Source: Bdellovibrionia bacterium (GTDB lineage Bacteria > Bdellovibrionota > UBA1018). Taken from it: 27,800 nucleotides of DNA. Position numbers and translations under genes: made by a program. Of this stretch, positions 5,219-27,414 are shown piece after piece. The notes under the pieces are model-generated. The model saw nothing but the letters and a program-made list of their open reading frames with translations, was not told where the DNA came from and searched no databases. Position 1 is the first letter of the stretch, and each line of letters starts with the position of its first letter. The stretch spans positions 1 through 27,800 of the forward strand of contig JBMSSC010000021.1 in assembly GCA_049424145.1 (NCBI GenBank), given 5' to 3'.

Positions 5219-5248
5219 ATTCTAAACGCACACAAGAGAATCACTCAA
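5219..5248 (-). promoter_or_regulatory. Possible sigma70-type internal promoter for the PPIase-surA-pmm-uvrA genes
   Basis: On the - strand, TTGAGT (5248-5243), 18 bp spacer, TAGAAT (5224-5219), in an AT-rich intergenic region. Confidence 0.4.
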
Positions 5249-8200
5249 ATGAATTTTTTAAAACAAGTTTCGAGCTGAAAGAACAGATCTCGTAAACTGG
5301 GTGTTGGCATTTTGGCGATCAGTCGAGAGTCGGGCAGGAGTTGGTATTCATGAGGATAGGCTGAAACCATAGCGATGATTCTTGTGGGATTAAATGTGTT
5401 TTGTTTTCCCGGGGTGAGCGAGATTTTCTCAGGCCCTACGGTGAGGGCCTCGATACCGGTCTTTTTTAGTAGTATTTTGATTCGAATTAGCCAAAGGAGG
5501 TTTTGAGCCTCAGGAGGAGGGGATCCGAAGCGCTCGCGGAGCTCTTGCTCTAAATCCTCTAAAGGCTGCTCGGTATTGAAAGCTGAAAGTCTCCGGTAAA
5601 GGGAGAGTCGGCTATGAATGTCAGGCACATACTCCTCGGACAAATAGCAGGGAAACGGGGTCTTAATCTCAGGATCAAGGCTTGAGTGTGACTCCTCGGG
5701 CTGACCTTTGATTTCTTGGATGGCTTCTTCTAAAAGCTCAGTATACAGATCAAAGCCCACGGCATTAATATTCCCCGATTGCTGAGCTCCAAGAAGGTCG
5801 CCACCACCTCGGATCTCCAAGTCATGGGAGGCCACTTGAAATCCGCTACCGAGTTCAATGAATTTTTGAATCACTTCCAGTCTTTTGATCGCGTCCTCGG
5901 AAATGGCTCCTTGTTCCGGGATGAGCAAGTAGGCATAGGCTCGTTGTTGGCTTCGACCCACGCGACCCCGGATTTGATAGAGTTGGGCTAAACCCAGCTG
6001 ATCTGCCCGTTCAATGAGAATCGTGTTGGCTGAGGGAAGATCAATGCCGGATTCAATGAGCGTGGTGCAAACTAAGACGTTTGATTTTTTCTCGTAAAAT
6101 TCAAACATTGTTTTTTCAAGCTCCGATTCATTCATTTGCCCATGAGCAACGGAGATCTTCGCTTGCGGCACAAGCTCGTGAATTCTTCGAGCAGTCTTTT
6201 GAATCGTCTGTACTCGGTTATGGAGGTAAAACACCTGGCCTCCGCGTGAGAGTTCAAACTCAATCGCATTGCGAATCACATTTTCATCCCACTGCGACAC
6301 ATAGGTGTGAATAGGAAGTCGATTGACAGGAGGGGTTTTGATCAGGCTAATTTCTCGAATTCCGGAGAGCGCCATGTGGAGGGTTCTAGGAATCGGAGTG
6401 GCCGTGAGCGTGAGCACATGCGTGTTGAGCTTGAGGGTTTTCAGCCTCTCTTTGTGCTCCACTCCAAAACGGTGCTCTTCATCGACGATGATCAGCCCTA
6501 AGTCCTGAAATTGAACGTCTTGGGAGAGGAGTCGGTGGGTTCCAATGACGATATCAATTTTCCCTAGACTGACCGCCTCTAAGATCGTCTTTTGCTCTTT
6601 CTTCGAGCGAAAGCGACAGAGGGATTCAATCAGAATCGGGTAGTCCTTCATTCGTTCTTGGAATGAGATCTGATGTTGTTGCGCAAGGATGGTGGTGGGT
6701 ACTAAGACGGCCACTTGCTTGCCTGCAGAAACCGCCTTAAAAGCAGCCCGGATTCCCACTTCCGTTTTTCCATAGCCCACATCCCCACAAACTAAGCGGT
6801 CCATCACTTGCCCTGACTCCAGATCGTTCATCACGTCTTGGATGGCTTGGAGTTGATCCGGGGTCTCATCATAAGGAAATTGAGCTTCAAACTCCCTTAA
6901 TTCACGGTCATTTGGCGGAAAGATGATGCCTTTTTGAAGTTTTCGTTTTGCGTAAAGATCAATGAGGCTGAAGGCGAGCTTCTTTACCTCCTCTTTGACT
7001 TGGTCTTTTATCTTTTTAAACCGCGCTGAGCCCAGTTGGTCTAAGGGAGCGCTGTCACCTGCTCCCACGTACTTTTGAATGGCGTTGAGGCGGTAAATCG
7101 GGATGTAGAGGCGATCCTGATTGGCATACTCTAAGAGAAGAAAATCACTGAGCGCGCCTTGGAGGTGAAGCCGACAGATGCCTTGGTAACACCCCACTCC
7201 GTGCTCCACGTGCACGACGCGGTCTCCTAAGTTCAAATCAGAGAGGGCCTGAATTGAGTTCCAGGATTGGCTTGGAGATGGGTTTTTTGAGGAGGAGCGA
7301 TGCGGTGTTTTTTTGGGTCTGCGCGTGCCTAAAAGATCGCTTTCGGTGATGACGGCAAGCTTTTCCTCGGGCCAATGAACGCTCTCGCTTAAGAGGCCTG
7401 GGAGTAAAGTGATTTGACCCGGCGAGGCGGGCTGCTGAGTGACGCAACTTAAGTTCCTCTGTTCTAAGAGGTATCGAATGCGCTGCAGTTGGCTTTCGGT
7501 TGGGGCCGTCAGTAGGATTTGGTAGCCATCTTTTAGCCAGGCTCTGAAGCACGGCTCTAGGGTGTCCCAGGAAGGGGGCTGAGAAGAGTCAGAGAAAGAC
7601 GGCGCTGGAGGGGGAATCGGCTCAAGAGATGCAGAGTCGGTGTGAGAGTGGGGGCTTAGGGAGGATCTCAAGGTCTGAAGCAGGGGTTTGAGGTTCATGC
7701 GGAGCCCAGGTTCTTGAGCTTTTTGAGTTTTGCATTCAGATTGAAGGAGGTCCAACGATTCAAAGGAAATGCGAGTGTGGGTCGAAGTGAGCTTCTCCCA
7801 ATCACCGGAGTCATGAAAGAGTTCGGAGACCTGAGGAAGGATGATCTTTTTCTCCAGAGCTTTTTTTGCAAGTCCTTCCTGAGCTTCGATGAACTTCACC
7901 CACTCCTCTTGGCAAGACCATGGATCACTCACCATGAGCTCAAAAGAATCGCTTAAGTAGTCCCAAAGGCGACCTGGTTTTTCATAAGCAAAAGGGGCCC
8001 AGCCGTCACTTTTTTCAGGATAGATCCCGCTTTTAATCGAGTCTAAGATCGGATCCCGTGCCAGTCTCGGGATCCCTTGATCATCTGCTCGCTGTTTAAT
8101 CTTCTCCCTTAGGAAATCGGAGTTTTGAGAGTGAATGAGGACTTCACGAGCAGGTGGAATGAAGACGGATTCCAGGGGTTTGGAGCTAGGGAGTGTTCTT

Positions 8201-8871
8201 TGGGTGGCAGGATCAAACTCTCGAATGCGATCCACCACATCATCAAAGAGCTCGATGCGTAGGGGTTTTTCTCGGTCGACTGAAAACACATCGAGGATAT
8301 CTCCTCGAATACAAAAGGTGCCTGGGTCCTCCACCGGATCGACCCGAAGGTAGCCTGCGGCGCCCAGCTGAGTGACGAGAGCTTCGCGCGTGAGGCTTGC
8401 GCCACAAGAGAGAGCGAGGGTGTGCTGAACAAACAGGTCCCTAGGTAGCGTACTCTGGCAGGCGGCAGCCCAAGTGGTTGCAATGATCTGTGGCTGAGTG
8501 GAATGGAGGAGGCTGTGGAGAGTTGCAAGCCGGATCAAGCGTGACTGAAGGGATAGAGCAATGGATCCATAAGGGGATTTCTCCCAAGTGGGAAAGGAAC
8601 GAAGAAGAGGCGGCTCAGAGCTCACCGCTTGAGCGAGGGTTTGAAAATTCGAGGTGAACTCTTCGAGTTGATCCGAAGTGGCGCACAGAACAACAAGACA
8701 GGCAGGGGAGTTTTGAGGTCGGAGGTGAGTTTTTTGGGTGAGAGCTTGTGCATAGTGAGCTACAAAAAAAGCCTGTGCCGGTGCATTGGAGCCCAGAATT
8801 CGAATCCCTGAGCTGGTTTTTGAGTGAAGGGCGGATTCAATCATCGCGGCCAAAGAAGAAGTGGAATTCAT
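5245..8871 (-). CDS. mfd: Transcription-repair coupling factor
   Basis: UvrB-homology module (GYLRVDPVEDPGTFCIRGDILDVF), RID (GDRVVHVEHGVG), CGDVGYGKTEV, IVDEEHRFG, TATPIPRTL, QIRGRVGRS, TRG motif DLEIRGGGDLLG. The ATG at 8871 is preferred over the GTG at 8925, which would overlap the divergent promoter. Confidence 0.97.
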   Translation of the reverse strand: MNSTSSLAAMIESALHSKTSSGIRILGSNAPAQAFFVAHYAQALTQKTHLRPQNSPACLVVLCATSDQLEEFTSNFQTLAQAVSSEPPLLRSFPTWEKSPYGSIALSLQSRLIRLATLHSLLHSTQPQIIATTWAAACQSTLPRDLFVQHTLALSCGASLTREALVTQLGAAGYLRVDPVEDPGTFCIRGDILDVFSVDREKPLRIELFDDVVDRIREFDPATQRTLPSSKPLESVFIPPAREVLIHSQNSDFLREKIKQRADDQGIPRLARDPILDSIKSGIYPEKSDGWAPFAYEKPGRLWDYLSDSFELMVSDPWSCQEEWVKFIEAQEGLAKKALEKKIILPQVSELFHDSGDWEKLTSTHTRISFESLDLLQSECKTQKAQEPGLRMNLKPLLQTLRSSLSPHSHTDSASLEPIPPPAPSFSDSSQPPSWDTLEPCFRAWLKDGYQILLTAPTESQLQRIRYLLEQRNLSCVTQQPASPGQITLLPGLLSESVHWPEEKLAVITESDLLGTRRPKKTPHRSSSKNPSPSQSWNSIQALSDLNLGDRVVHVEHGVGCYQGICRLHLQGALSDFLLLEYANQDRLYIPIYRLNAIQKYVGAGDSAPLDQLGSARFKKIKDQVKEEVKKLAFSLIDLYAKRKLQKGIIFPPNDRELREFEAQFPYDETPDQLQAIQDVMNDLESGQVMDRLVCGDVGYGKTEVGIRAAFKAVSAGKQVAVLVPTTILAQQHQISFQERMKDYPILIESLCRFRSKKEQKTILEAVSLGKIDIVIGTHRLLSQDVQFQDLGLIIVDEEHRFGVEHKERLKTLKLNTHVLTLTATPIPRTLHMALSGIREISLIKTPPVNRLPIHTYVSQWDENVIRNAIEFELSRGGQVFYLHNRVQTIQKTARRIHELVPQAKISVAHGQMNESELEKTMFEFYEKKSNVLVCTTLIESGIDLPSANTILIERADQLGLAQLYQIRGRVGRSQQRAYAYLLIPEQGAISEDAIKRLEVIQKFIELGSGFQVASHDLEIRGGGDLLGAQQSGNINAVGFDLYTELLEEAIQEIKGQPEESHSSLDPEIKTPFPCYLSEEYVPDIHSRLSLYRRLSAFNTEQPLEDLEQELRERFGSPPPEAQNLLWLIRIKILLKKTGIEALTVGPEKISLTPGKQNTFNPTRIIAMVSAYPHEYQLLPDSRLIAKMPTPSLRDLFFQLETCFKKFI

Positions 8872-8890
8872 CCTTGGCAATCTACTGAGC

Positions 8891-8919
8891 TTGACACGGT
8901 TTTTCAACTTCAGTAACCT
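8891..8919 (+). promoter_or_regulatory. Sigma70-type promoter for the nuo region
   Basis: TTGACA (8891-8896), 17 bp spacer, TAACCT (8914-8919), followed by a GGAG RBS and the ATG at 8946. Confidence 0.75.
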
Positions 8920-8945
8920 TTTCACAATCTTTGGAGAAGACCATC

Positions 8946-9422
8946 ATGACAGGCATGACAAGCAGCTGGGGTTCGTATTACGTGGTGTTCCTATCTGCGG
9001 TTTTATCCTTAGGGATTCCCTTGGTCTTAGGCGTGCTCTCTCTGGCCTTTATCCCTCGTAAAAAGCCTCAGGTTGCGGTGAGCTCGGAGCTGAAGAAAGT
9101 GGCGATTAACCAAACCGTGTTGGGCCAAAGGATGAACGTTCGCTTTTTTTTGGCAGCCAACGCCGCTTTGGTACTCATCACGCTCGCCTTAGAACTCATC
9201 CCCTGCGTGATGACTCTGCAAACCAATCATCCCGAGGATTTAATCAAGGGTCTCACCGCGATTGTGACGATTGCTGGATTTACTGTTTTAGGGTTGCTCT
9301 ATTCTGTGAGAAAAGGGGATATGGCTTGGTTAAAGACTTATCACTCAGATCCTTTGTCGGATTTTTCGGCCGATCCCTTAGGAGATTCACCTCTGGACTC
9401 TCAGGAGAGAAAGGCTCACTAA
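8946..9422 (+). CDS. nuoA: Divergent NuoA-like subunit (set 1)
   Basis: Three hydrophobic helices; RMNVRFFLAA aligns to [10 protein letters not shown] and YSVRKGDMAW to [10 protein letters not shown] of the second NuoA; first gene of the nuo run. Confidence 0.8.
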   Translation: MTGMTSSWGSYYVVFLSAVLSLGIPLVLGVLSLAFIPRKKPQVAVSSELKKVAINQTVLGQRMNVRFFLAANAALVLITLALELIPCVMTLQTNHPEDLIKGLTAIVTIAGFTVLGLLYSVRKGDMAWLKTYHSDPLSDFSADPLGDSPLDSQERKAH

Positions 9423-9434: not shown

Positions 9435-9905
9435 ATGGGATCTTTTTATTTATCGACTGTCGGCAAGTTTTTAAGTTGGGCCCGATCCAAGTCCATTTGG
9501 TACATCTCCACAGGAAGTGGGTGCTGCGCCGATGAGGTCTTAGATTCCATGGGAGGACGTTACGACTTAGAGCGATTTGGGTGCGTGCCTCAAGTGGACC
9601 CCAGGCAGGCAGATCTGCTCATCGTCTGTGGTATGGTCTCTTATAAAGCGGCTCCTTACTTGAAAACTCTGTATGATTCCATGCTCTCCCCTAAGTATGT
9701 CTTAGCAGTTGGCGCATGTGCGAATTGTGGTGGGCCTTTTTCGCCCAAATACAGTTACTCCGTGGTCGCAGGAGTGGATCAAGTGATTCCTGTGGATGTG
9801 TATGTCCCGGGATGTCCGCCTCGACCTGAGGCCATTATGAACGGTTTGATTGCTTTACAGGAAAAAATCAGTGGACAAGACGCTTCTTTTAAAGACTTTG
9901 AATAA
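9435..9905 (+). CDS. nuoB: NuoB-like subunit (set 1), N2 cluster ligands intact
   Basis: [48 protein letters not shown]. Confidence 0.93.
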   Translation: MGSFYLSTVGKFLSWARSKSIWYISTGSGCCADEVLDSMGGRYDLERFGCVPQVDPRQADLLIVCGMVSYKAAPYLKTLYDSMLSPKYVLAVGACANCGGPFSPKYSYSVVAGVDQVIPVDVYVPGCPPRPEAIMNGLIALQEKISGQDASFKDFE

Positions 9906-10497
9906 AGCCCTGCCCGGCGTGGTTCTCGACTCTCAAGCCTTTGGTCGAACCGAAATCCCCTCGCTATGGATTGAGTTGAACTCGATCCACACGATTGCTC
10001 AGTTTTTAAAAACAACGGAGCCCCACTTTTTGGATTGGCTTGAGAATCTCTCAGTCGTGCAAGTCGATCAAGCCTTGGTGGTGAACTATTTTCTCAGATC
10101 CACACGCTCAAAGGATCAATTGGTGCTCCGAGGATCGGTCGTACCCGAATCTCCTTTAAAAAAAGTAGTTCTCTGCTCGACTCGCGCTATCTGGCCAATG
10201 GCTGAGCCTTGGGAGCAGGAAGCAGAAGAGCTCTTTGGAATCGCGTTTCGGAGCGACTTCACACAAAAAGAGATCGGAGTGAGGCGTCAAATTCTCCCTG
10301 AGGGTTGGGTGGGATTTCCTATGAGAAAAGAGTATGTTTTTCCCCAGGAAGTCTATGGAATCCCTCATCGCAGGGCGAAGCTCAAGCCAGAGCCGAATCC
10401 TCAGGACCCAAATGAGTCCGACTTCAGCTCAAGTGGGGATCCTCACGCGCGGAGCACTTCGTTAAGCGCTCACACCAAGAAAGACATGGGCTCATGA
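9871..10497 (+). CDS. nuoC: NuoC-like subunit (set 1)
   Basis: WEQEAEELFGIAF and ILPEGWVGFPMRKEY match the NuoC signature. The GTG start at 9871 is inferred (overlaps the nuoB end). Confidence 0.85.
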   Translation: MDKTLLLKTLNKALPGVVLDSQAFGRTEIPSLWIELNSIHTIAQFLKTTEPHFLDWLENLSVVQVDQALVVNYFLRSTRSKDQLVLRGSVVPESPLKKVVLCSTRAIWPMAEPWEQEAEELFGIAFRSDFTQKEIGVRRQILPEGWVGFPMRKEYVFPQEVYGIPHRRAKLKPEPNPQDPNESDFSSSGDPHARSTSLSAHTKKDMGS

Positions 10498-11630
10498 TTC
10501 AAGCCGATCAGGATTTTTTTGACTCCGATTTAACCGTTTGCGAAATTGGGCCTTACCATGGAGCTTTTCCTTCCCCAATGAGGATGCGCTTAAGCTTAGA
10601 TGGGGAAATTATTGCCCGAGCGGAAGTGGAAACGGGTTTTTTGCATCGGGGCTTAGAAAAAGCCTGCGAACTCCATCCTTGGTTCTCCTTAGTTTCGTAT
10701 GCTGATCATTTAGATCCCGAGGTGGCCCTTTTTGGGGAGTTGGCCGTGTGCCTAGCCGTTGAGCAGATCTGTGAAATTTCTGTTCCTAAGCGAGCCAAGG
10801 CGATTCGCATGATTTTATCTGAGTTAACCCGGATCTCTGCTCATTTGGCCTACCTCGTGCGCATGGCCAAGGTGGTGGGCTCAGAAACGATCATTCACTA
10901 TGTTTTAAGGGATCGCGAGAAGATTTTAGATCTCTTTGAGTTGCTCACGGGCGCTCGGTTTTCGCTCAACTTTTTACGCTTCGGCGGAGTCAATGCCGAT
11001 GTGACCGATGGTTTTATTGAGCGAGTGCTGGAAGTGTGTGAAATGATCCGGATTCGCATGAAAGAGTACAATGATCTATTCACCTTTAATCAGAGCTTTT
11101 TAAAGCGGACGTCATCGTTGGGGATCATTGATGCGCAGTGGATTCGAGCCTTTGGGGTTACTGGCCCAAATGCCCGTGCCTCGGGCATTGCCGAGGACTT
11201 TAGAAAGATTCATCCCTACTCGGGTTATGATGAGTTGGATTTTGAAGTTCCTGTGAGTCGCTCAGAGGCGGGAAAAAACGGGAGCGTCCATGATCGCTTT
11301 CTGCTTAGGCTGAGGGAAATGAATCAAAGCATCGAGATCCTCAAGCAAGTCTCAGATCATATTCCCTCAGGCGACTATCGCGTGGGAAAAGTGGGTCGGG
11401 ATTTTACTGTGCCTCCTGGCGAGGCCTATGCTCGAGTGGAGAGTGCTCGGGGACTCCTGGGCTGCTATGTGGTCTCTCATGGCACCCATTATCCTAACCG
11501 GGTTCAGTTTCGAACGGCGACTCAGGGAAATCTGATGCTGATTCCTCAGGTGGTCCCTGGGCTCAGAATTGAGGATTTACCCGTCTTTCTCGCCAGTTTA
11601 GATCTCGGAATCGCGGAGGCGGATCGATGA
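10494..11630 (+). CDS. nuoD: Divergent NuoD-like subunit (set 1)
   Basis: IGPYHG, LDGEII, GFLHRGLEK, ELTRISAHL, TGPNARASG, EAYARVESARG, C-terminal EADR; no NiFe CxxC motifs. Confidence 0.9.
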   Translation: MIQADQDFFDSDLTVCEIGPYHGAFPSPMRMRLSLDGEIIARAEVETGFLHRGLEKACELHPWFSLVSYADHLDPEVALFGELAVCLAVEQICEISVPKRAKAIRMILSELTRISAHLAYLVRMAKVVGSETIIHYVLRDREKILDLFELLTGARFSLNFLRFGGVNADVTDGFIERVLEVCEMIRIRMKEYNDLFTFNQSFLKRTSSLGIIDAQWIRAFGVTGPNARASGIAEDFRKIHPYSGYDELDFEVPVSRSEAGKNGSVHDRFLLRLREMNQSIEILKQVSDHIPSGDYRVGKVGRDFTVPPGEAYARVESARGLLGCYVVSHGTHYPNRVQFRTATQGNLMLIPQVVPGLRIEDLPVFLASLDLGIAEADR

Positions 11631-12706
11631 GTTCAGGTTTACTCTGGGTGATTTCTTGGTGCGATTTTCTGGGCTTCCCCTCGGATCTGCCTCAATGGTT
11701 TTATGCGCTGCTTTCGATTTTATGCATCTACTGGCTTGTGGTGGTTCCTTTTGGTCTCTTAGTGACTTTCTTAGATCGTAAGCTCAGTGCCGACTTACAA
11801 GCTCGCGTGGGTCCTAATCGTGCTGGGCCCAAAGGGGCTTTTCAGCCGATTGCTGATTTAATTAAGCTGCTTCAGAAAGAAAATCAGGCTTCTTGGTTTT
11901 GGGGAGAAAGTCTGTGGCTTGGGGTCCATACCATGGCCTTGTATTCCACGTTGGCGGTGTTGCCCTTGGGCTCACTGGCTCTTTTAGTGGACACCGAGGT
12001 CAGTGCGTTTTTACCTTTTTGGGCTGCTCTCGTGTTGGCGTTAGGAACGATGCTTTTAGGCTTGAGCCAAGGTTCCGTCTCAGGTTTGTTCGGGGGTATT
12101 CGAATCGCAGCGCAGTCGTTGGCCGGATCCCTTCCCGCTTTGGTGTCGATTCTCTGCGCGGGGGTGCGCACCGGAAGCTTCAAATGGAGCGCTTTTGCAG
12201 CCGTTCAGGAGTTTTCTCCTTGGACGTGGACGGTTTTTTCCAATCCCTTTGAGACCATGGCTTTTGGAGTGTTTGTGATGAGTGGAATGGTGCTACTTGC
12301 GATTCCTCCTTTAGATGGAGGGCTGTCCGTCTCGGATATTCATGGAGGCGTCTCCTCACACCTTCATGGACGCAGGCTGAGTCTTTATTTGTTTGGTCGA
12401 TTCTATGGATTCCTTCTATGGTCCTTGATTACTGTGGTGATGTTCCTGGGGGCTTGGCGCCTTCCGATGGGGCTTTCTGAGACTTTAAAGGAAGCCTACT
12501 CCTACAAAGTCCTCGCGTTTCTGGAGTTGACCCTACTTTTGGCTAAAACCTTGGTCCTGATGCTGTTGATCCTCTGGGTTGCACGAGTCAATTCGCGCAG
12601 TCGCGTGGATCAAATTACGGATTTCACCTGGAAAGTGCTGAGTCCGTTTTCCCTGTTGGCCCTTGTGGGGGCTAGTTTTTGGGTGAGTGGGAGGGCTTTC
12701 TGGTGA
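11627..12706 (+). CDS. nuoH: Divergent NuoH-like subunit (set 1)
   Basis: DRKLSADLQARVGPNRAGPKGAFQPIADLIKLLQKE and RSRVDQITDFTWKVLSP; multi-TM protein. Confidence 0.9.
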   Translation: MSSGLLWVISWCDFLGFPSDLPQWFYALLSILCIYWLVVVPFGLLVTFLDRKLSADLQARVGPNRAGPKGAFQPIADLIKLLQKENQASWFWGESLWLGVHTMALYSTLAVLPLGSLALLVDTEVSAFLPFWAALVLALGTMLLGLSQGSVSGLFGGIRIAAQSLAGSLPALVSILCAGVRTGSFKWSAFAAVQEFSPWTWTVFSNPFETMAFGVFVMSGMVLLAIPPLDGGLSVSDIHGGVSSHLHGRRLSLYLFGRFYGFLLWSLITVVMFLGAWRLPMGLSETLKEAYSYKVLAFLELTLLLAKTLVLMLLILWVARVNSRSRVDQITDFTWKVLSPFSLLALVGASFWVSGRAFW

Positions 12707-13236
12707 GACACTCAATTTTTCGGACCATCATCCTTTATGTTCGTGGGGTCTTCATTGGCGCGTGGTCAATTGTGGGTTCGTGCCTGACGGCTTTACCCTA
12801 CTTGTTTCGTTGGGATGAAATGAGAAAGGAAGTCACGGAAGGGTATCCTGACCCGGTTTCATCTAAAACGGCCGATGATCTACCGCCTCGCAGTCGGGGC
12901 CTATTATTCAACGATATCGATCGCTGCATTGGCTGCAAAGAATGTGAGAAGGCGTGTCCCACGGAGTCGATTCAAATTGAGGCAGAACCCGGAGCAGATG
13001 CATCGAAGATTTGGGTGTCTGTCTTTGATGTGGATTTCTCCAAATGCACCTTTTGTGGATTATGTGTGGAGGTCTGTGAGCCAGGGTCTTTAGTTCACAC
13101 CCGACAGTACGAGGGTGCGGCCTATCACTTAAAAGATTTGGTGGCCAGTTTTGGTCGCGGTCAAATCACCCCTGAGTATCGAGCCAAATGGGCTGCCATT
13201 CGCCAGATGAGTGAAAGCGATGAGGTGGTTTTATGA
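12703..13236 (+). CDS. nuoI: NuoI-like 2x[4Fe-4S] subunit (set 1)
   Basis: VTEGYP, LPPRSRG, CIGCKECEKACP and CTFCGLCVEVCEP; GTGA overlap with the nuoH stop. Confidence 0.9.
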   Translation: MRHSIFRTIILYVRGVFIGAWSIVGSCLTALPYLFRWDEMRKEVTEGYPDPVSSKTADDLPPRSRGLLFNDIDRCIGCKECEKACPTESIQIEAEPGADASKIWVSVFDVDFSKCTFCGLCVEVCEPGSLVHTRQYEGAAYHLKDLVASFGRGQITPEYRAKWAAIRQMSESDEVVL

Positions 13237-13294: not shown

Positions 13295-13789
13295 ATGATG
13301 GGATGGGTTTTCTCGGGCATTACTTTAGTGGCCGTGTTCATGACCTCATTTGATGGCAATATGAAGCGCTCCATCTTTGCGCTCTGGGTTGCGGGCCTGG
13401 GCGTCGGAGCCATTTACCTCACCATTGGAGCTGAGTTTTTAGCGATGGTCCAATGGGTCGTCTCCACGTTGGTGACCATCTCGTTTGTTTTTTTTTCCGT
13501 CATGTTTGGCGAGTACAAAACGTCTGTTTCCCATGAGACCTCCAACCCTTGGGTTTTAAAATTCTTTGCTCTGGTTTTGGGGCTGGGGTTTGCTGGAGTC
13601 ATTGGGGTGGGAACGCAGAACTTTTCCTTGAAGAACTTCTCAGTGGACTCCGGGGGAGCTGATTTAGCTTTAATCGGACAAAAACTCACGCAGGAAAACC
13701 TCCTCTCATTAGAAGTCTTGGCTTTAACCTTGTTTTTAGTCGTGGTGGGTGCCGGTGTGATTGCCCGCTCCGAAAAAAGGGGGCTGTAA
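13295..13789 (+). CDS. nuoJ: Divergent NuoJ-like subunit (set 1)
   Basis: Five TM segments, GAEFLAMVQ, IGQKL...LSLEVLALTLFLVVVGAGVIAR; RBS GGAGAGG; gene order. Confidence 0.85.
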   Translation: MMGWVFSGITLVAVFMTSFDGNMKRSIFALWVAGLGVGAIYLTIGAEFLAMVQWVVSTLVTISFVFFSVMFGEYKTSVSHETSNPWVLKFFALVLGLGFAGVIGVGTQNFSLKNFSVDSGGADLALIGQKLTQENLLSLEVLALTLFLVVVGAGVIARSEKRGL

Positions 13790-13790
13790 G

Positions 13791-14078
13791 ATGATGCTCG
13801 TTGCGGGCCTGATCGGGGGCCTAGGTTTAGTCTGCATGATTTCAAGAAGAACCTTATTGGGTTTACTCATGGGCATTCAGTTGTTGGTCTTAGGTTCCAC
13901 CATGATGTTTGTCTTGGCCGGGATTGCAGCAGGACTGCCCATTGAGGGTCATATTTTTGGTCTCTTCATCATTTTAGGTGGCGTTGCTCAACTCGTGGTG
14001 GGGTACGCACTTGCCATCCGTTTTTTCTTTTTGAAGAAGAAAATTTCTATGGATGAATTACAGGCGTTAAAACAATGA
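13791..14078 (+). CDS. nuoK: Divergent NuoK-like subunit (set 1)
   Basis: 95 aa, three TM segments, ISRRTLL...MGIQL, C-terminal SMDELQALKQ resembling the NuoK tail; gene order. Confidence 0.85.
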   Translation: MMLVAGLIGGLGLVCMISRRTLLGLLMGIQLLVLGSTMMFVLAGIAAGLPIEGHIFGLFIILGGVAQLVVGYALAIRFFFLKKKISMDELQALKQ

Positions 14079-16018
14079 TTAGCTCATCAAATCCACTCAC
14101 CCTTCTGACTCTCTGTACGTTATTCGTTCTTTTAATCGGTATGGTGTCGTTTATCTGGGGGAAACACTTACCAGGTAAAGGTCTCTGGCTCAGTTGGCTT
14201 GCCATGGTGATTTTTGTCGCAGGCCTAGGCATTGATTGCGGGCTGTTTTTTAATGAACCCTTTGAGGCAAAATCTTGGAGTGTTGGGTGGATTGGTTCCA
14301 GGCAGGATCTCGGAGCCATCACCATTGGTGTGTTTCAGGATGCCTTAGCCATTGCCATGAGCTTTCTAGCAGCCCTCGTTGCCATCACATTGATCGTGGA
14401 TCGAGCTGATTTGCCCAGTCAATGGGATCGCAATAAATCCTATGGCCCGTTGATTGTCTCGATGGCTGGTGTCGCTTTGTCGTGGAATTCGATGACTCCT
14501 TGGATGGCCCTAGGAGGCCTCATGTTTGTTATCCTGGGAGGCTTTCTATTGGGCGGCGTGGCTGGAGACTCCAATCAAGAGGCAAAGAGTGCTTCTCGAT
14601 TTTTAATGGAGCGAGTCTTTGGATTTCTCCTCTCGTTTTTGGGCTCCTGCGTTTTAGCCGTTTCAAGACCTGCGTTGACCTTAGATCAACCCCTTTCCTG
14701 GCTTTCTTCCGGGGGGAATCCAGCCTCCACCTGGGTGGGCAGTTTCCTTTTAGTGTTTGGACTTTTTTTACAAGCTCAGCCTTTTCCTTTTTTAGGCTGG
14801 GTGGTGCTGAGCTCGGAGCTCAGTCCTCCGTTTCGAATTCTATTAAATCAAATCTTTCCCGCTTGGAGCGCTTTTGCGTTATTAGTGAGGCTTGAACCGT
14901 TTTTAACAGGCCTGGGTTTGTTTCCTCATCTGGGCTGGTTTGCATTAGCTTCATCCATTTTAACCGTGTTTGTGGGGTTGTTTCAAAACCAGTGGCGTCA
15001 GGGCCTAGGGCTTTGGTTGTCTTCCGGTTTTTCCCTCTCGTTTGCGCTGCTGGCCTTTAGTGGACCTTTGGCTGCCATGAGCCTTCTTCTGGGTGTGAGT
15101 CTGGGGGCGTTAATTCTCTCCAAAGCGGCGGTTGGCTTGTCTGAGGAGAATTCAAAAAACCCTCTGCAGAAGAATCAGGGGTTTTGGACTCGGTTTGTGA
15201 TCATTTTAGGGGCCTCAGCCGGCTCAGGAATGATGGGCTTTGTTTCAGCCGTAGGGGGAGTGCGAGGGCTTGCCGATGCGCTTAATTTTCCTGGTCTGAT
15301 CACCTTGTTTGTGGTGGCAATTTTTCTCTTCGGTCTTTTGTGCTGGAAAGTGGCTTGGACTCTCACGCGATTAAAGCGAGTCTCCGATGCTTCCTGGTTA
15401 TCCATCTTCTTGCCCTTTTTTTGGGCCGTCTTGGCGATGGGCTGGGTTTGGACAGGCCTCATCTCAGGAGACCTTCTTTTGGGTGGTGCGGATCGCCTCA
15501 TCCCCTCGTTATTCTCCTATTTTTTTAACTCACAAGAGCTCGAAGTGATCCCTTCTCCGGAGTTGATCTCCGCATCGGGAATCTACTGGGGGGCTTTGGG
15601 CTTCTCCATGGCCACGGCGTTTTGGACGGCCGGACGAAAAGAGGATCGCTGGTTGAATTTAGCCCGCGTGATGCCCAAAACAACTCGGTTTATTGCCAGC
15701 GGCTATGGAGTGGATCAACTCGTTCATCGGATGCTGTGCGTGATCATTTCCTTGGGTCAATTTTCTGAACGGATGATTGATCAGCGGGTATGGAGCCTCT
15801 GGATCCCGCGCGGGCTCAGTGGGGGGGTTTTGAAGGTTTCTCGGTGGGCGGATCGCTTGGACCTAGCGATTTCTTTTTACTTGGGGCGTCTTCTCAGGCT
15901 CAGTGTGGAGCTTCCTGCAAAAGCATTGCAAAGGGTTCACACGGGGGATCTCCGCTGGTATTTATTTTTTGCTTTAACGTCGGGTCTGGTTTTGTTGTCG
16001 TATTTTTTAAAAAATTAG
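14075..16018 (+). CDS. nuoL: Highly divergent NuoL-like antiporter-fold subunit (set 1)
   Basis: 647 aa polytopic protein; DALAIAM, GYGVDQL and LQRVHTGDLRWYL match the NuoL N-terminal and C-terminal (post-lateral-helix) motifs; lies between K and M. Confidence 0.8.
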   Translation: MISSSNPLTLLTLCTLFVLLIGMVSFIWGKHLPGKGLWLSWLAMVIFVAGLGIDCGLFFNEPFEAKSWSVGWIGSRQDLGAITIGVFQDALAIAMSFLAALVAITLIVDRADLPSQWDRNKSYGPLIVSMAGVALSWNSMTPWMALGGLMFVILGGFLLGGVAGDSNQEAKSASRFLMERVFGFLLSFLGSCVLAVSRPALTLDQPLSWLSSGGNPASTWVGSFLLVFGLFLQAQPFPFLGWVVLSSELSPPFRILLNQIFPAWSAFALLVRLEPFLTGLGLFPHLGWFALASSILTVFVGLFQNQWRQGLGLWLSSGFSLSFALLAFSGPLAAMSLLLGVSLGALILSKAAVGLSEENSKNPLQKNQGFWTRFVIILGASAGSGMMGFVSAVGGVRGLADALNFPGLITLFVVAIFLFGLLCWKVAWTLTRLKRVSDASWLSIFLPFFWAVLAMGWVWTGLISGDLLLGGADRLIPSLFSYFFNSQELEVIPSPELISASGIYWGALGFSMATAFWTAGRKEDRWLNLARVMPKTTRFIASGYGVDQLVHRMLCVIISLGQFSERMIDQRVWSLWIPRGLSGGVLKVSRWADRLDLAISFYLGRLLRLSVELPAKALQRVHTGDLRWYLFFALTSGLVLLSYFLKN

Positions 16019-16028: not shown

Positions 16029-17528
16029 GTGAGCCATCATTTAATTAGCATGACTGTTTTCTTTCCTCTGCTGGGAACCATCCTTCAAGCCATCTTGCCG
16101 TCGTCCAGAAGTCGGTGGGTGAGCTTTTCGGCCAGTCTACTCTCCAGCGTCTGTGCTGCAGTACTGGTGATTTCGATGCAAGGGCAGAGTGCGGAGCTGC
16201 AAGCCATTGAGTCGTATTCTTGGGTGGGGTCCTACGCCATCAGCTACGATATGGGTGTGGATGGTTTAAATGCTCTGATGGCCCTTTTGATTGCTATTTT
16301 ATTCCCGGTGCTCATTGCCTCAGAGTGGAATCAAAAATCCGGGGTTCGAGGGATGCATGGGTTATTTCTCATTCTTCAAACTTCACTATTTGGGGCCGTA
16401 TTTGCTCAGGACTTGTTTTTACAATTTTTCTTTTGGGGCTTAAGCGCACTCCCGTTTTACTTCTTAGTGGGGATTTGGGGAGGCGAGAATCGGGAGAAAG
16501 CTGCGTTTCGTTCCATGGTGGCTTCCTCTTTGGGAAATGCACTGATTTTTGCAGCCTTGGTTTTGATCTACTACTCAGTGGACCCTCATAGTTTTGCTCT
16601 CAAAGAGCTTAGTGGTGGAAAGCTTGCGGGGAAGTCTTTTGAGTTTTTGGGCTTTCAACTCCCTGTGGCGACAGTGGCTTTTGGGTTAATGAGTGCTGGG
16701 ATTTCCATGCGGGCTCCGATTTGGCCGTTTCATGGGTGGTTTACGGAAGTGGCCCAGGAGGCACCGCCTTCGGTCATGGTAGCGCTTGCGGCAGGGTGTG
16801 TGCCTGTGGCGATCTATATTTTTATTCGGGTGAGTTATTTTTTATTTCCTGAGATCTTAAGCGATGTCACCGGATTCATTGTGGGTGTGGGCATCATTAA
16901 CCTCATCATGGGGGGGTTGTGTGCTGCCTATCAGAGGAGTTTACGAAAACTGCTAGCGTTCATCTGTTTAAGTGAGCTGGGGTTGGTGTTGATGGGGATT
17001 GGCTCTCTGAGTCCGGTCGGTTTAGTTGGTGCTGTCTATCAACAGATGATCTTAGGGTTAAGCTTGGCAGGATTTGGTTTGTTTTCGGGGGTGATTTCTG
17101 AGCGCACCGGGCACTGCTTATTTCAAGATGAAGCAGGAGTGAGGACCTATGGCGGGATTGCTTCGAAGGCTCCTTTTTTCTCGGTCTTCACGGGGATTGT
17201 GGTGGCTTCTCTCATTGGATTCCCAGGTCTTGCTGGATTTGTGGGTCACGCGCTTGTGATGATTGGAAGCTATTCCATTCACCCCGCAGCCGTCTTAGTG
17301 GTGGGGGGAACTTTATTGTTGGCCTCCTACTACCTTTTTCATATGTACCGTGGGATTTTTTTAGGAAAACCAGCGGAGCATTCAGAGACGTTCTCTGATC
17401 TCACCCTGCGTGAGCGCGCGTATTTATTTCCTGTGGTCTCGGGACTTTTGTTTTTTGGTCTGTATCCCAAGCCCGTGATTGAGCTGATTCGTCCGACTAT
17501 TTTAACCCTACTGTCTACGGTCAAGTGA
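16029..17528 (+). CDS. nuoM: Divergent NuoM-like subunit (set 1)
   Basis: YDMGVDGL, QDLFLQFFFW, PFYFLVGIWGGENR, PIWPFHGWF...EAP, GFPGLAGFVG, DLTLRE, FGLYPKP. Confidence 0.9.
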   Translation: MSHHLISMTVFFPLLGTILQAILPSSRSRWVSFSASLLSSVCAAVLVISMQGQSAELQAIESYSWVGSYAISYDMGVDGLNALMALLIAILFPVLIASEWNQKSGVRGMHGLFLILQTSLFGAVFAQDLFLQFFFWGLSALPFYFLVGIWGGENREKAAFRSMVASSLGNALIFAALVLIYYSVDPHSFALKELSGGKLAGKSFEFLGFQLPVATVAFGLMSAGISMRAPIWPFHGWFTEVAQEAPPSVMVALAAGCVPVAIYIFIRVSYFLFPEILSDVTGFIVGVGIINLIMGGLCAAYQRSLRKLLAFICLSELGLVLMGIGSLSPVGLVGAVYQQMILGLSLAGFGLFSGVISERTGHCLFQDEAGVRTYGGIASKAPFFSVFTGIVVASLIGFPGLAGFVGHALVMIGSYSIHPAAVLVVGGTLLLASYYLFHMYRGIFLGKPAEHSETFSDLTLRERAYLFPVVSGLLFFGLYPKPVIELIRPTILTLLSTVK

Positions 17529-17534: not shown

Positions 17535-19004
17535 GTGAGAGAATTCTTCCTAATTCTGCCTGAAGTGTGCATTGTTTTAACCCTCGCCTTTGTGATCGCA
17601 GGGGAGATTACCCATTCAGGGGAGAGAATTCGATTGATCGGTACGGCTGCACTCATTGGGATTGCAGGAGCCCTCATTCAAACGATCATTTCCTACGGGT
17701 ATGGCCCCACCAAGGTTTTTGGGGGAAGTCTTTCAATTGACGGGTTTTCCCTATTTTTTAAGCTCGTGTTTATGACCTTAGGGATGTTGGCCATTTTTTT
17801 AATGTTCCAGTCCAAGGAAATTGCCGTAGGTAGGAGAACGGAGTACATCGCTCTTGTTTTAGCCTCCATTCTTTCAATGTGTTTAGTGGCGTCAGCCTCA
17901 GATTTGGTGGTGGCCTTTTTGGCTCTCCTTTTTATGAATCTGATCTCCTATGTTCTGGCTGCTTATGGACAAAAATCAGCGTATTCCGCCGAGGCTGGGA
18001 TTAAATTCCTTGCGTTTGGAGCCGTCTCCAGTGCGCTCCTTCTTTATGGGTTTGCCATTTTATTTGCCTCCACCCACACGCTCAACTTGTATGAAATGCA
18101 CCAAGCGCTTCTGGCCAATCCGCTTTCCTTTGAGGTGATGTGGGTCGTTTTTAGTTTGTGTTTTTTAGCCTTCAGTTTTCAGTTGGGCACGTTTCCTATG
18201 TATCTGCTGGTGCCAGATGTACTCGAGGGAGCCCCCACCCCGGTTTCTGCTTTTTTATCCATTGGGCCCAGAGCCGCGGGGTTTGCTCTTGTGACTCGAC
18301 TTTTGATTGTCCTCTTTGCTCAGCCTGGAGCGGTGCCGGGACGCTGGGAAGTTTTAGGGGAAATGCACTGGACTCAGATCGTTTCTTTGGTTTCGGGAAT
18401 TACGATGATCGTGGGGGCGTTGCTTGCATTTCGGCAACAGGGAGCTAAGCGCTTAGTGAGTGACCTTGTGGTTGCCGAAAGTGGATTTTTGCTCATGGGG
18501 CTTTTAGTGCTCGATGAAGTGGGAATTGCAGCGTTGCTTTATAACCTCGTGGTTCAGTTGTTTGCGCTCATTGGGATTTTCTTCATCCTGGGGTTCTTGG
18601 TGGACGAACTTCAATCGGACCGATTGGTCTGCATGCGAGGGATGTTGAAGAGAGCAGTACCTGAGTGTATTTGTTTGATCTTGTTTCTTTTCTGTCTCGT
18701 GGGTAGCCCTCCTTTGCCCGGATTTATCGGAAAGTTTACTTTGATTGGATCTGCCATTCGTCATAAAAGATTGGCTCTAGCAGGGGTTGCTATTTTTTCC
18801 ATGGTGCTTTCGATTGCCTCAGTGACGCGGCTTTCGTACGATTTGATCTCCCCTGTGAAGGGTGAATCTCCCGCGGCTGTGCCCGTGAGTTATTCCCGAA
18901 AAACGTTCTTGGCGTTTTTAATAATACCGATGGCACTAGTCGGGATTTTTGCTAATTTCGTACTCGGGTGGGCAGGCCGATCTTTAGGTTTTATTTTCCG
19001 GTAG
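17535..19004 (+). CDS. nuoN: Divergent NuoN-like subunit (set 1)
   Basis: IDGFSLFFK, SAEAGIKFLAFGAVSSALLLYG, PDVLEGAPTPVSAFLS, PPLPGFIGKF. Confidence 0.9.
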   Translation: MREFFLILPEVCIVLTLAFVIAGEITHSGERIRLIGTAALIGIAGALIQTIISYGYGPTKVFGGSLSIDGFSLFFKLVFMTLGMLAIFLMFQSKEIAVGRRTEYIALVLASILSMCLVASASDLVVAFLALLFMNLISYVLAAYGQKSAYSAEAGIKFLAFGAVSSALLLYGFAILFASTHTLNLYEMHQALLANPLSFEVMWVVFSLCFLAFSFQLGTFPMYLLVPDVLEGAPTPVSAFLSIGPRAAGFALVTRLLIVLFAQPGAVPGRWEVLGEMHWTQIVSLVSGITMIVGALLAFRQQGAKRLVSDLVVAESGFLLMGLLVLDEVGIAALLYNLVVQLFALIGIFFILGFLVDELQSDRLVCMRGMLKRAVPECICLILFLFCLVGSPPLPGFIGKFTLIGSAIRHKRLALAGVAIFSMVLSIASVTRLSYDLISPVKGESPAAVPVSYSRKTFLAFLIIPMALVGIFANFVLGWAGRSLGFIFR

Positions 19005-19038
19005 CGCCCAAAGCCTGAGAAGGCTATAAGAGTTGCAT

Positions 19039-19398
19039 ATGAGCTACATTCCTGTGTTGATCTTAATGTTGGCGGGCCTGACCGTTGGAAGCGCTATCCT
19101 GCTTCTGTCTTCGCTTTTAGGGGGTTCCGTTCCGAACAAACGCAAAGGGATGCCGTTTGAGTGTGGAGTGCCCGCCTATGGTTCGGCTCGTCATCGGTTT
19201 TCAGTGAAATTTTACTTGGTAGCGATTTTATTTCTTCTTTTTGATGTGGAAGGAATTTTCTTTTTTCCATGGGCAGTTGCCTTTAAGAAATACCTGGCGA
19301 TCAATTCCTTTATTCTTTTTGAGATGGGTTTTTTCGCTCTCATTTTAGTGGTGGGCTACGTTTACGTTTTAAGAAAAGGCGCTCTGAAGTGGGAGTAG
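19039..19398 (+). CDS. nuoA: NADH-quinone oxidoreductase subunit A (set 2)
   Basis: [33 protein letters not shown]. Confidence 0.96.
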
Positions 19399-19434
19399 GC
19401 CTTTTTTCTCAGGCTCGTGGTTGAGGAGATATTC

Positions 19435-19974
19435 ATGGGTAAAGACGGTTCAGTTGGTTTTTTCACAACACGCTTGGATGCTTTTATTAATTGGGGCCGA
19501 AAAAACGCGCTCTGGCCGCTTCCTTTTGGGACGAGCTGTTGCGGGATTGAAATGATGGCTACGCTGTGCTCGGATTATGATATGTCCCGCTTCGGAGCAG
19601 AGGTGGTGCGCTTTTCCCCCAGGCAAAGTGACCTTCTTATTGTGGCAGGGATTATTAACTTAAAAATGGCTCCGGTCTTAAAGACGGTCTATGACCAGAT
19701 GAGCGATCCCAAATTTGTGATGTCCTTTGGGGCTTGCGCGTCGTCAGGAGGGATCTTCAACGTGTACAGTGTGCTTCAAGGCATTGACACGATGATCCCG
19801 GTGGATGTCTATGTGCCAGGATGTCCTCCTGCTCCAGAAGGAGTGCTTCACGCCTTAGTGAGGCTTCAGGAGATGGTGGCTCGCGGTGAGACTCATTCTC
19901 AGAGAAAGCTTGCGCAGCTGAAAAACCCCACGGTGAAGGCCGTGCAAGACACATCAGAATCAGGCAGGGGATGA
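19435..19974 (+). CDS. nuoB: NADH-quinone oxidoreductase subunit B (set 2)
   Basis: [44 protein letters not shown] before the ATG at 19435. Confidence 0.96.
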
Positions 19975-19977
19975 TCC

Positions 19978-20547
19978 ATGGATATTCGACAGCCGATACC
20001 TACGAATGGCGGAGACTGGCTTTCAAAATTTGGTGAGATCTGGAAAAAACAAGTCGAGCAGCTCAGAGAAAAGTTGGCCTCCTCGATTGAAGAGGTTCGC
20101 ATGCCACCGGATTACCCCACGGATGTTCCAGTGATTTATGCCAAGAAAGAGGCCATTGTTTCGGTGCTGCGTTATTTGAAGGAGACTCCCGGGTTTGAGT
20201 ACACCTTCTTGGCAGACATCACGGCAACCGATGAGGGCGGGCACCCTCGGTTTGAAGTGGTTTATAACTTGTTTTCCATGACCCAAAAGAACCGGATTCG
20301 CGTCAAGGCACGAGTGGCGGAGAATGAGGAAATTCCCACGGTGATTTCCGTTTGGAAGGGCGCCAATTGGGCGGAGCGAGAAGTGTTCGATATGTTTGGT
20401 GTGAAGTTTAAAGATCACCCCAATTTGAGAAGAATTTTAATGGACACTCGGTGGGTGGGTCATCCGTTGAGGAAGGATTATCCTTTAAAGGGATATCAGA
20501 TGTTCACGGATGCTCAGGCGGTGGACCCGTCTCTTTTAGAAAAGTAG
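19978..20547 (+). CDS. nuoC: NADH-quinone oxidoreductase subunit C (set 2)
   Basis: RFEVVYNL, ANWAEREVFDMFG, HPNLRRIL, GHPLRKDYP. Confidence 0.96.
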   Translation: MDIRQPIPTNGGDWLSKFGEIWKKQVEQLREKLASSIEEVRMPPDYPTDVPVIYAKKEAIVSVLRYLKETPGFEYTFLADITATDEGGHPRFEVVYNLFSMTQKNRIRVKARVAENEEIPTVISVWKGANWAEREVFDMFGVKFKDHPNLRRILMDTRWVGHPLRKDYPLKGYQMFTDAQAVDPSLLEK

Positions 20548-20562
20548 GCAATTGGGTAGATT

Positions 20563-21801
20563 ATGACACAAAGCTTAGACACCTCAAATATCAACTCAGG
20601 AAGACCCGAAGGCAGTGATCCCGATGAGCTCTGGGATAACTCAGGAGTGATCGTCAATATTGGGCCCACTCATCCGGCGATGCACGGAGCCCTTCGGATG
20701 GTGGCCCAATTGGATGGGGAAACCATTGAGAAGTCCTATTGTGAGTTCGGCTTTACTCATCGAGCCAAAGAAAAGCTGGGTGAAAATCGGACCTTTCATA
20801 ATTTTATCGTCTATACGGATCGACTCAACTACTGCTCCGCTTTAACCAACAACGTGGTTTATGCTCTTTCGGTTGAAAAGCTCATGGGCATTGAGGTGCC
20901 TGAGCGGTGCGTCTGGCTTCGGATGATTTGCTGTGAGCTGGCTCGGGTGATCGATCATTTGATCTGCATTGGGATCAATGCCGTGGACTTAGGGGCATTT
21001 TCTTTCTTTCTCTATGGGTTTCACCAACGAGAAGAAGCCTACACGTTGATTGAAAAACTCTGTGGAGCGCGCCTAACGACCTCTTACGCTCGTATTGGCG
21101 GAATGATGGCGGATGCTCCTGAGGGGTTTGAGCGAGAGCTGAAGGCTTGGGTCAACAAAACCCGCACTGTGATTGACGAAATGGATGAGCTACTCACCAA
21201 TAACAAAATTTGGAGAGAGCGAACCGTGGGTGTCGGTGTGTTTAATAAAGAGCAGTGCCTAGAGTATAGCTACAGTGGGCCCAATGCCCGGGCTGCTGGC
21301 ATTGACCTGGATTTAAGGCGAGATCAGCCCGTTTTATTTTACAAGGACGTCGAGTTTGATGTGCCCATTTGCCAAAACGGGGATGTCTACGATCGCTACA
21401 TGATTCGGTTGGCTGAAATTCGTCAGTCGTTGAACATTTTAAGTCAGTGTGCGGATAAGATCCGCAAAGGTCCAATTTGGACCGAAGATAAGAGGGTGAG
21501 AATCCCTCAAAAAGAAGTGGTTCATAACACGATGGAAGGTCTCATTCATCACTTCAAGTTCTTCATGAGCGGCTTTGAGGTGCCCGAAGGTGAGGCTTAC
21601 ACTCAGTTTGAAGCCACCAATGGAGAGCTGGGGTTTTACATTGTCAGTCGGGGATCTCCCAGAGCGCATCGAATGAGGATTCGAGGTCCTTCCGTTTGGC
21701 ACTATCAAGGCTTATCTCCCATGGTCAAAGGGGAGAAGATTGCGGACATGGTTGCTGCTTTAGGCAGTATTAATATTATTGCAGGTGAATTGGATCGCTA
21801 G
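20563..21801 (+). CDS. nuoD: NADH-quinone oxidoreductase subunit D (set 2)
   Basis: NIGPTHPAMHGALR, YTDRLNY, AVDLGA, GELDR. Confidence 0.97.
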   Translation: MTQSLDTSNINSGRPEGSDPDELWDNSGVIVNIGPTHPAMHGALRMVAQLDGETIEKSYCEFGFTHRAKEKLGENRTFHNFIVYTDRLNYCSALTNNVVYALSVEKLMGIEVPERCVWLRMICCELARVIDHLICIGINAVDLGAFSFFLYGFHQREEAYTLIEKLCGARLTTSYARIGGMMADAPEGFERELKAWVNKTRTVIDEMDELLTNNKIWRERTVGVGVFNKEQCLEYSYSGPNARAAGIDLDLRRDQPVLFYKDVEFDVPICQNGDVYDRYMIRLAEIRQSLNILSQCADKIRKGPIWTEDKRVRIPQKEVVHNTMEGLIHHFKFFMSGFEVPEGEAYTQFEATNGELGFYIVSRGSPRAHRMRIRGPSVWHYQGLSPMVKGEKIADMVAALGSINIIAGELDR

Positions 21802-21835
21802 GCGATCGAATTCAGATCAAAGAGGCTGTGGATTC

Positions 21836-22312: not shown

Positions 22313-22315
22313 GTC

Positions 22316-24999: not shown

Positions 25000-25002
25000 G
25001 TT

Positions 25003-26115: not shown

Positions 26116-26118
26116 TTT

Positions 26119-27406: not shown

Positions 27407-27414
27407 GAGTAGAT

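Follow-up and report, generated by a model that had tools for sequence, protein, structure and literature searches.

A complex I-like operon kept across a class of Bdellovibrionota without most of its quinone ligands and pump residues

What does a complex I-like operon do once its quinone site is gone? The question is raised by a stretch of 27,800 nucleotides (hereafter the window) from a Bdellovibrionia bacterium, which is one entire contig of a 2.7-Mb genome that is 95% complete and whose homologues carry the taxon labels Bdellovibrionota, Oligoflexia and Bdellovibrionia. The gene order runs from a divergent mfd-like ORF to a first set of nuo genes, ABCDHIJKLMN (set 1, 8931-19004), and, after some 30 bases, to a second set (set 2), of which the remainder of nuoL, together with M and N, lies on another contig, C70 (Table 1). 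The mfd name is based on sequence motifs, and by the same criterion the ORFs at 1720-5130, downstream of mfd, are presumably a phosphomannomutase-like gene and two parvulin/SurA-like genes, ordinary neighbours all. Set 1 has all 11 core subunits (A, B, C, D, H, I, J, K, L, M and N) and lacks NuoEFG, the sole copy of which in the genome sits in set 2; its NuoL-like protein has no Pfam or NCBIfam match and was identified from position, size and an iterated profile. Scans for promoters and terminators gave a signal no higher than shuffled sequence. An initial annotation of the window had singled out the NuoD of set 1 as a protein without its quinone-binding residues that was not a hydrogenase. 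As we describe here, this NuoD belongs to something larger that the first reading missed, an 11-subunit complex that is wholly disarmed, membrane arm included.

Table 1. Coordinates of the genes discussed, in the window unless a locus is named.
Feature	Position	Strand	Remarks
mfd-like helicase ORF	5245..8925	-	Divergent from set 1; chromosomal site marker; same neighbour in relatives
Set 1 NuoA	8931..9422	+	Probable start ATG 8946; weak PF00507 match, E 0.0014
Set 1 NuoB	9435..9905	+	N2 cysteines C30, C31, C95 and C127 kept
Set 1 NuoC, divergent	9850..10497	+	ORF limits; real start probably later
Set 1 NuoD, flagged gene	10494..11630	+	378 aa; triad lost, pocket remodelled
Set 1 NuoH	11627..12706	+	No E-channel Glu or TM5-6 loop acids; Arg/Asp of the TM1-2 loop kept
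Set 1 NuoI	12679..13236	+	Two 4Fe-4S motifs intact; new motifs class-wide
Set 1 NuoJ	13295..13789	+	Ser replaces TM3 Tyr
Set 1 NuoK	13761..14078	+	Gln at both Glu sites (13878-13880, 13989-13991)
Set 1 NuoL-like, most divergent subunit	14075..16018	+	All eight tested key residues lost
Set 1 NuoM	16029..17528	+	Pump residues substituted
Set 1 NuoN	17535..19004	+	TM12 Lys400 retained
Set 2 nuoABCDEFGHIJK and start of nuoL	19033..27774	+	Canonical; every tested key residue intact; internal control
Extra NuoM-like gene (f13/f14)	L038:9488-10954		
Extra NuoM-like gene (f13/f14)	L093:8033-9394		
Extra NuoM-like gene (f13/f14)	L094:7934-9361		
Extra NuoM-like gene (f13/f14)	L095:8461-9804		
Extra NuoM-like gene (f13/f14)	L096:8249-9613		
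Extra NuoM-like gene (f13/f14)	L097:8149-9498		

The product of the flagged gene is of the NuoD family, yet it scores under every NCBIfam NuoD cut-off. Its phmmer alignment to Thermus Nqo4 (2fug_4) is ungapped across the three ligand sites, with a constant offset of 12, and sets Pro26 (codon 10569-10571) against His38, Pro75 (10716-10718) against Tyr87 and Val127 (10872-10874) against Asp139, the numbering of these quinone ligands being that of PMC4758237 and PMC9503403 in their accessible parts. The replacement of the triad by Pro, Pro and Val is therefore as the initial annotation had it, and the motifs that it quoted for both NuoD proteins are all found; Thermus His34 is retained, as His22. 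Since Pro26 occurs in 114 and Pro75 in 116 of 120 homologues, these substitutions are due neither to chance nor to sequencing error; residue 127 is Ala in 81 of them, Ser in 28 and Val in 7. The arginine next to N2 (Arg84) has indeed become a histidine in this protein (His72, codon 10707-10709), but the change is not fixed, His being present in 103 homologues and Arg in 17. The loss of the triad, complete in the flagged protein, is likewise not universal: among 58 set-1 copies across the class neither His38 nor Asp139 is ever found (Glu takes the latter position in 3), but Tyr87 stays in 12. The triad is intact in 51/51 set-2 copies and in 10/10 outgroup BCDI copies. As for hydrogenase motifs, the flagged protein ends in EADR and no CxxC is present in it or in any other of the 120 listed homologues; one of 56 set-1 copies carries one. 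The absence of both CxxC and triad supports the view that this is not a hydrogenase and that the canonical quinone site is gone. The fold is another matter, as an AlphaFold model built on an 80-row alignment is NuoD-shaped (pLDDT 91, TM 0.92), with the NuoD fold of the complex I superfamily, and 63 of 80 canonical NuoD invariants are kept, the 14 lost ones including residues of the pocket.

The quinone chamber appears to have been rebuilt and not merely eroded, because new residues have become conserved in it. The search for such residues among orthologs, proposed with the initial annotation, yielded Arg123, Glu131 and His135 in NuoD and Asp33 in NuoB. Many other residues that seemed specific to set 1 proved to be common to BCDI copies and were excluded. 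In the phmmer alignment the three NuoD residues replace Thermus Thr135, Leu143 and Phe147, which the available portions of PMC4758237 and PMC9503403 count among the residues of the chamber or near the quinone. Among the 120 homologues, His135 is found in 118, Glu/Asp131 in 114 and Arg/Lys123 in 114. NuoB Asp33 (codon 9531-9533) lies two residues past the Cys pair and is present in 33 of 37 copies of the group without Tyr87 versus 0 of 12 in the group that keeps it. We presume that position 33 faces the pocket, and no placement of its equivalent there was found in the literature searched. The tally gives both Asp33 and Arg123 in 27 loci, in 2 more that have Lys and in others with Ser, Thr or Ala at 75; the coupling is not strict, several loci carrying just one of the two. 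Tyr21 and His22 are conserved in close homologues (116 and 115 of 120) and not across the class, where the His34 equivalent is found in 37 of 58 copies.

The membrane arm tells the same story on a larger scale. Positions are labelled here with E. coli residue numbers, the columns themselves having been located via set 2. The set 1 of the flagged genome has lost 8 of the 8 residues tested in NuoL, 7 of 8 in NuoM and 5 of 6 in NuoN, as well as both NuoA acids, both NuoK glutamates and the NuoJ tyrosine. NuoA has Ile/Leu at the equivalents of Asp79/Glu81, and its TM1-2 loop motif is gone. The substitutions are Glu to Gly137 (TM5), Lys to Arg228 (TM7), Lys to Pro259 (TM8), His to Glu316 and Glu to His407 (TM12) in NuoM, and Glu to Leu132 (TM5), Lys to Gln216 (TM7), Lys to Arg246 (TM8) and His to Glu315 in NuoN. 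Class-wide, with 41-55 sequences per membrane subunit, truncated or unrecognised genes (chiefly the most divergent) omitted and divergent rows less certainly aligned, set 1 retains none of NuoA Asp79/Glu81 (0/47), NuoJ Tyr59 (0/46), NuoK Glu36 and Glu72 (0/49 each), NuoH Glu157 (0/55), or NuoL Glu144 (0/42) and Lys229, Lys342 and Lys399 (0/43, 0/43 and 0/42), and next to none of NuoM Glu144 (1/50), Lys234 (2/50) and Glu407 (2/50) or NuoN Glu133 (4/49) and Lys217 (2/49). What stays is NuoM His241 (41/50), the TM12 lysine of NuoN (33/49) and the TM1-2 loop residues of NuoH, and new conserved polar residues have appeared: Arg228, Glu316 and His407 in NuoM, and Gln216, Arg246, Glu315 and Lys400 in NuoN. 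The tested residues of A, J, K, L, M and N are kept in 9/9 outgroup AHJKLMN clusters. The roles of these positions are those given in the accessible text of PMC10212512, where NuoL is proposed to be the sole proton exit; the NuoL of set 1 retains 6 of 114 canonical invariants, and so near-complete a loss is in line with the suggested link between NuoL conservation and that role. Set 1 is thus without the NuoEFG module, the quinone site and the L/M/N and E-channel charges of a pumping NADH:quinone oxidoreductase, and without the intact pumping membrane arm of NUO11. Judged from its genes, it very probably assembles into a complex I-shaped particle that would be unable to couple redox chemistry to proton pumping.

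This state is shared by a whole bacterial class. In our sample of the phylum, 63 of 68 genomes of the class have at least two NuoD-like matches at E <= 1e-15 (not all of them set 1), and 5 have a single one. The 58 set-1 NuoD rows come from 59 class loci picked for a second NuoD match, minus two duplicates (L052 and L072), plus the flagged genome; since these genomes are kin, the counts describe one inherited state and not independent events. Wherever a locus extends over both sets, set 1 lies immediately ahead of set 2. The losses are staged: families f2/f7 keep Tyr87 plus some M/N charges, f13/f14 keep only Tyr87, and in f1 and neighbouring families Tyr87 is gone. In 6/6 f13/f14 loci an additional NuoM-like gene stands between L and M; it is highly divergent, and degenerate M copies account for all of its best profile matches. 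In family f10, set 1 (L046:3476-9814 and L103-L105) has shrunk, NuoC being undetected, H having some 265 aa and the positions of L, M and N being occupied by shorter hydrophobic ORFs without family matches.

Several features of other copies deserve mention. In some genomes of the class (L122-L128), the flagged one not included, there is a third complex I, of 11 subunits, whose NuoD motifs look canonical; in L122 it comes after a 2-oxoacid:ferredoxin oxidoreductase pair. Other Bdellovibrionota (L031-L037 and L048-L050) carry a stand-alone nuoBCDI with intact triad, far from AHJKLMN, and in one such genome (G138) NuoF gave no match with the query used. In outgroup genomes, second membrane-arm copies have long NuoM branches and isolated losses in L081 (G172; J Tyr to Asn, N TM8 Lys to Ile) and L084 (N His to Asn), possibly an early decay of the other copy. 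Locus L089 (G061, family f15) has an unrelated order, in which J, K, B, C, D, H and I follow three antiporter-like genes. In L043:13131-17270 (G005) it is set 2 whose nuoB, C/D and F are in pieces, probably through assembly frameshifts, set 1 being intact. Set 2 of the window has peculiarities of its own: its NuoG (23578-24999) is only 473 aa long, as in relatives (455-508 aa), and its NuoD (20563-21801) has Ile at Thermus Thr135 and Asn at Asp86, Arg350 and Asp401, the same three Asn changes that are listed for antibiotic-producing Myxococcales in the consulted portion of PMC4758237.

Set 1 is under purifying selection. In the sole unsaturated pair of loci (L060/L063) dN/dS is 0.01-0.17 over the eleven set-1 genes, which argues that set 1 is not a decaying pseudogene; four set-2 genes of the same pair give 0.05-0.09. 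Over ten pairs, in most of which dS is saturated, dN/dS is well below 1 in every measurable gene, the single exception (0.66) coming from an ORF that was called too long. The broken frames and dN/dS near 1 of a pseudogene are not seen, as two NuoD matches hold one stop each and frames are otherwise open. The suggestion that the site "may be dead" is thus not supported if a decaying gene is meant, though the complex may be catalytically dead. Set 1 evolves faster than set 2 across the class (NuoD identity 0.48 versus 0.73), and the losses are targeted, invariants being mostly kept in D, B and I and nearly all gone in L; NuoM and NuoN are conserved about as well as NuoH.

The Fe-S arm is what has been preserved best. 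The set 1 of the flagged genome keeps the full complement of twelve Fe-S cysteines in NuoB and NuoI, the ligands of N2, N6a and N6b, and across the class the four NuoB cysteines are found in 54/56 copies and both NuoI motifs in 57/58. They persist in family f10 despite the undetected NuoC and the barely recognisable L, M and N. The slowest-evolving subunits are B, I and D; NuoB keeps 36/46 and NuoI 14/16 canonical invariants, and NuoI carries new conserved motifs.

With quinone and pump residues lost, Fe-S clusters kept and selection maintained, set 1 probably does a different, non-pumping job. Our best reading, to which we give slightly less than an even chance, is that set 1 assembles into an Fe-S relay that does not pump and whose membrane arm is sealed. 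We favour it because the Fe-S arm outlasts the other parts, even in copies where these have collapsed, and because NuoI and the pocket have gained conserved features. A soluble carrier might dock on NuoI, electrons would pass from N6a to N6b and N2, and a small polar acceptor held in the remodelled pocket by NuoB Asp33 and NuoD Arg123, Glu131, His135 and His72 could take them, without any energy being conserved. The membrane arm would be a sealed anchor in which Arg-Glu pairs stand in for the Lys-His relays. The different acceptor suggested by the initial annotation gains some support from the new charged residues. Several facts speak against the relay. The genome has no match to PF01855, the 2-oxoacid:ferredoxin oxidoreductase family that would be the obvious source of reduced ferredoxin, and no evident donor, although one 83-aa ferredoxin-like frame is present; the cysteines would also be explained if the clusters just keep NuoB and NuoI folded; Asp33 and Arg123 could equally form a plug; some working enzymes tolerate single substitutions at the triad (PMC7567858 and PMC4758237, in the passages accessible); and NuoH suffices as an anchor, so that the relay leaves the conservation of M and N unexplained. 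That conservation, with strong selection on a charge-free membrane arm (dN/dS of 0.02 for NuoM and 0.05 for NuoN), is better accounted for, as is the extra M, by the main rival, in which the complex is catalytically dead and serves as scaffold or regulator. Such a whole-complex pseudoenzyme, in which the clusters would be structural and the pocket plugged by an Asp-Arg-Glu-His network, could be a partner or assembly template for set 2, a supercomplex spacer or a membrane organiser, shape being what matters. The constant position of set 1 immediately ahead of set 2, across a gap in which no terminator-like site is listed, and an added NuoM-like gene, as though arm length mattered, fit this view, as does the detrimental effect on activity of Ser192Arg in Yarrowia, at the position of Arg123 (in the part of PMC7567858 available to us). 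We nevertheless consider it rather unlikely, as the membrane arm is the most variable part and much shrunken in f10 while the Fe-S arm is the best conserved, twelve copies hold Arg84-Asp86-Tyr87 beside N2, and in other Bdellovibrionota complex I is used without any partner of this kind.

An uncoupled quinone reductase or quinol oxidase, turning over menaquinone via Tyr21, His22, His72 and His135 without pumping, is improbable for the flagged family, which lacks all three ligands and has Arg, Glu, His and Asp at formerly hydrophobic pocket positions. It is likelier in the 12 of 58 copies that combine Tyr87 with Arg/Lys84, and Tyr87 mutants are active with short-chain quinones (PMC7567858 and PMC4758237, in the accessible text). 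The genome makes menaquinone by menD, which is present, the futalosine gene mqnA (PF02621) having no match, and the NuoH TM1-2 loop is kept; the conservation of Tyr21 and His22 in close homologues speaks for the same chemistry, their lack of conservation across the class against it. More doubtful still is the repurposing idea of the initial annotation in its strong form, be it as a pump, of MBS type or otherwise coupled, that uses a new acceptor, or as passive passage of another ion or solute: His38 and Tyr87 are missing as in MBS and M and N have new conserved polar residues, but N2 has its four cysteines, the E-channel and the coupling loops of A, H, J and K are stripped, and NuoL, the proposed sole proton exit, has few canonical invariants left. 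Least probable of all is a slowly decaying relic, kept because of the way the operon is built or because it has become entrenched with set 2. Its long branches relative to set 2, the gradient of loss down to f10 and the genomes with a single NuoD-like match are what a relic would leave, but the low dN/dS values, the open frames across the class and the gain of new invariant residues are not. The relay reading can be extended, a shade more tentatively, to the class: a whole respiratory pump may have been turned into a non-pumping Fe-S relay or redox sensor, with a charged pocket for a new ligand and a sealed arm. Just as tentatively, the living intermediates, with Tyr87 and some M/N charges kept, would record the steps of this conversion, and one lineage would have lengthened the arm.

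Where did such an operon come from? A recent duplication of set 2 is ruled out by the separate, short-branched clade that set 2 forms in the NuoD, NuoM and NuoB trees. The NuoM tree has a split with support 100 between set 2, together with other second copies, and set 1 with six intact mfd-side copies; L091 and L092, counted as outgroup, nevertheless group with set 2. The sister group of set 1, which may be the outgroup BCDI copies, does not emerge from the D and B trees. A 24-aa NuoD segment, which we take to be in contact with NuoG, is missing in 58/58 set-1 and 10/10 BCDI copies and present in 47/47 set-2 copies. The available part of PMC13147790 places nuoAHJKLMN at one chromosomal site in all the Bdellovibrionota studied, describes a second, probably acquired, complete operon, and makes no mention of degenerate residues. 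From the NuoM tree and synteny, we hold with moderate to firm confidence that set 1 descends from the mfd-linked 11-subunit complex of the phylum. At the same grade, the pump was lost after the adjacent 14-subunit operon had assumed the task of conserving energy; the His/Asp pair and the membrane charges would have gone first and Tyr87 later. This order of events is one that we infer, the trees being quick and unrooted, with long branches, SH-aLRT support only and no clade test.

Energy conservation is taken for granted in complex I homologues, and set 1 could not provide it under any current model, so that the keeping of about 10 kb of non-conserving genes across a bacterial class suggests a second use for the complex I architecture. 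Set 1 also amounts to a natural deletion series, in which what was lost (the His/Asp pair, three coupling loops, the E-channel, the central axis and most of NuoL) would be what pumping needs, and what stayed would mark fold and assembly. In practice, operons of this type are annotated as ordinary NADH dehydrogenases, and metabolic reconstructions are misled. Triad-less NuoD proteins are already known (from the consulted part of PMC4758237); added here are counts for the whole class, set against two controls, the stages of the loss, the rebuilding of the pocket with charged residues and the extra M gene. In the literature searched, which was mostly without subscription papers, we found no description of a complex that had lost triad and pump together while under selection, and supplementary figure S2 of PMC4758237, on deltaproteobacterial nuo clusters including Bdellovibrio, may hold a remark on it.

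Among the closest known systems are the 11-subunit complex I-like enzymes, NUO11, as defined in the accessible text of Moparthi and Hagerhall 2011 (PMC3144371), which include the BCDI and AHJKLMN of other Bdellovibrionota. Set 1 shares with them 11 subunits, the absence of an N-module and of a C-terminal Cys pair, the short NuoD and the mfd-linked site, but the outgroup copies keep the triad (10/10) and the pump residues (9/9 clusters). The MBS/Mbx sulfane sulfur reductase, invoked as a precedent in the initial annotation, resembles set 1 in having neither NiFe site nor His38/Tyr87, and the parallel ends at those positions. According to the portion of PMC7684303 at hand, the proximal cluster of MBS has three cysteines and a reactive iron without a cysteine ligand, MbsL has two leftover cysteines and the membrane arm contains working pumps. 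In set 1, NuoB has the four cysteines of set 2 (tandem CC plus two), there is no leftover pair, and in place of an Mrp-type ion-pumping arm we find the NuoAHJKLMN layout with its charges lost; as its N2 holds four cysteines and its pump is disabled, set 1 does not appear MBS-like. The Nuo of Sulfolobus, Nautiliales and Desulfurobacteriales also lacks His38, Tyr87 and Asp139, and Fpo keeps Tyr87 alone, as do 12 set-1 copies (Degli Esposti 2015, PMC4758237, in the part seen, which reads the triad-less forms as ancestral, pre-quinone states); in set 1, by contrast, the loss is secondary and an intact complex I lies next to it. The group 4 [NiFe] hydrogenases (Ech, Hyc, Mbh) have a homologous large-subunit fold (Mbh, E 3e-39; HycE, E 1.5e-34), but the flagged protein has no CxxC and is much closer to NuoD/NdhH. 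In 2M complexes an extra NuoM has a pumping role, and the fourth antiporter-like gene of f13/f14, absent from the window, resembles theirs, except that all copies here are without pumping residues. With respiratory complex I itself (NuoA-N; Thermus Nqo4, E. coli NuoCD), set 1 shares eleven core subunits in canonical order, the NuoD fold, a tandem-Cys NuoB and a two-cluster NuoI, and it differs in being without NuoEFG, the quinone triad and nearly all the charges of the central axis and the E-channel.
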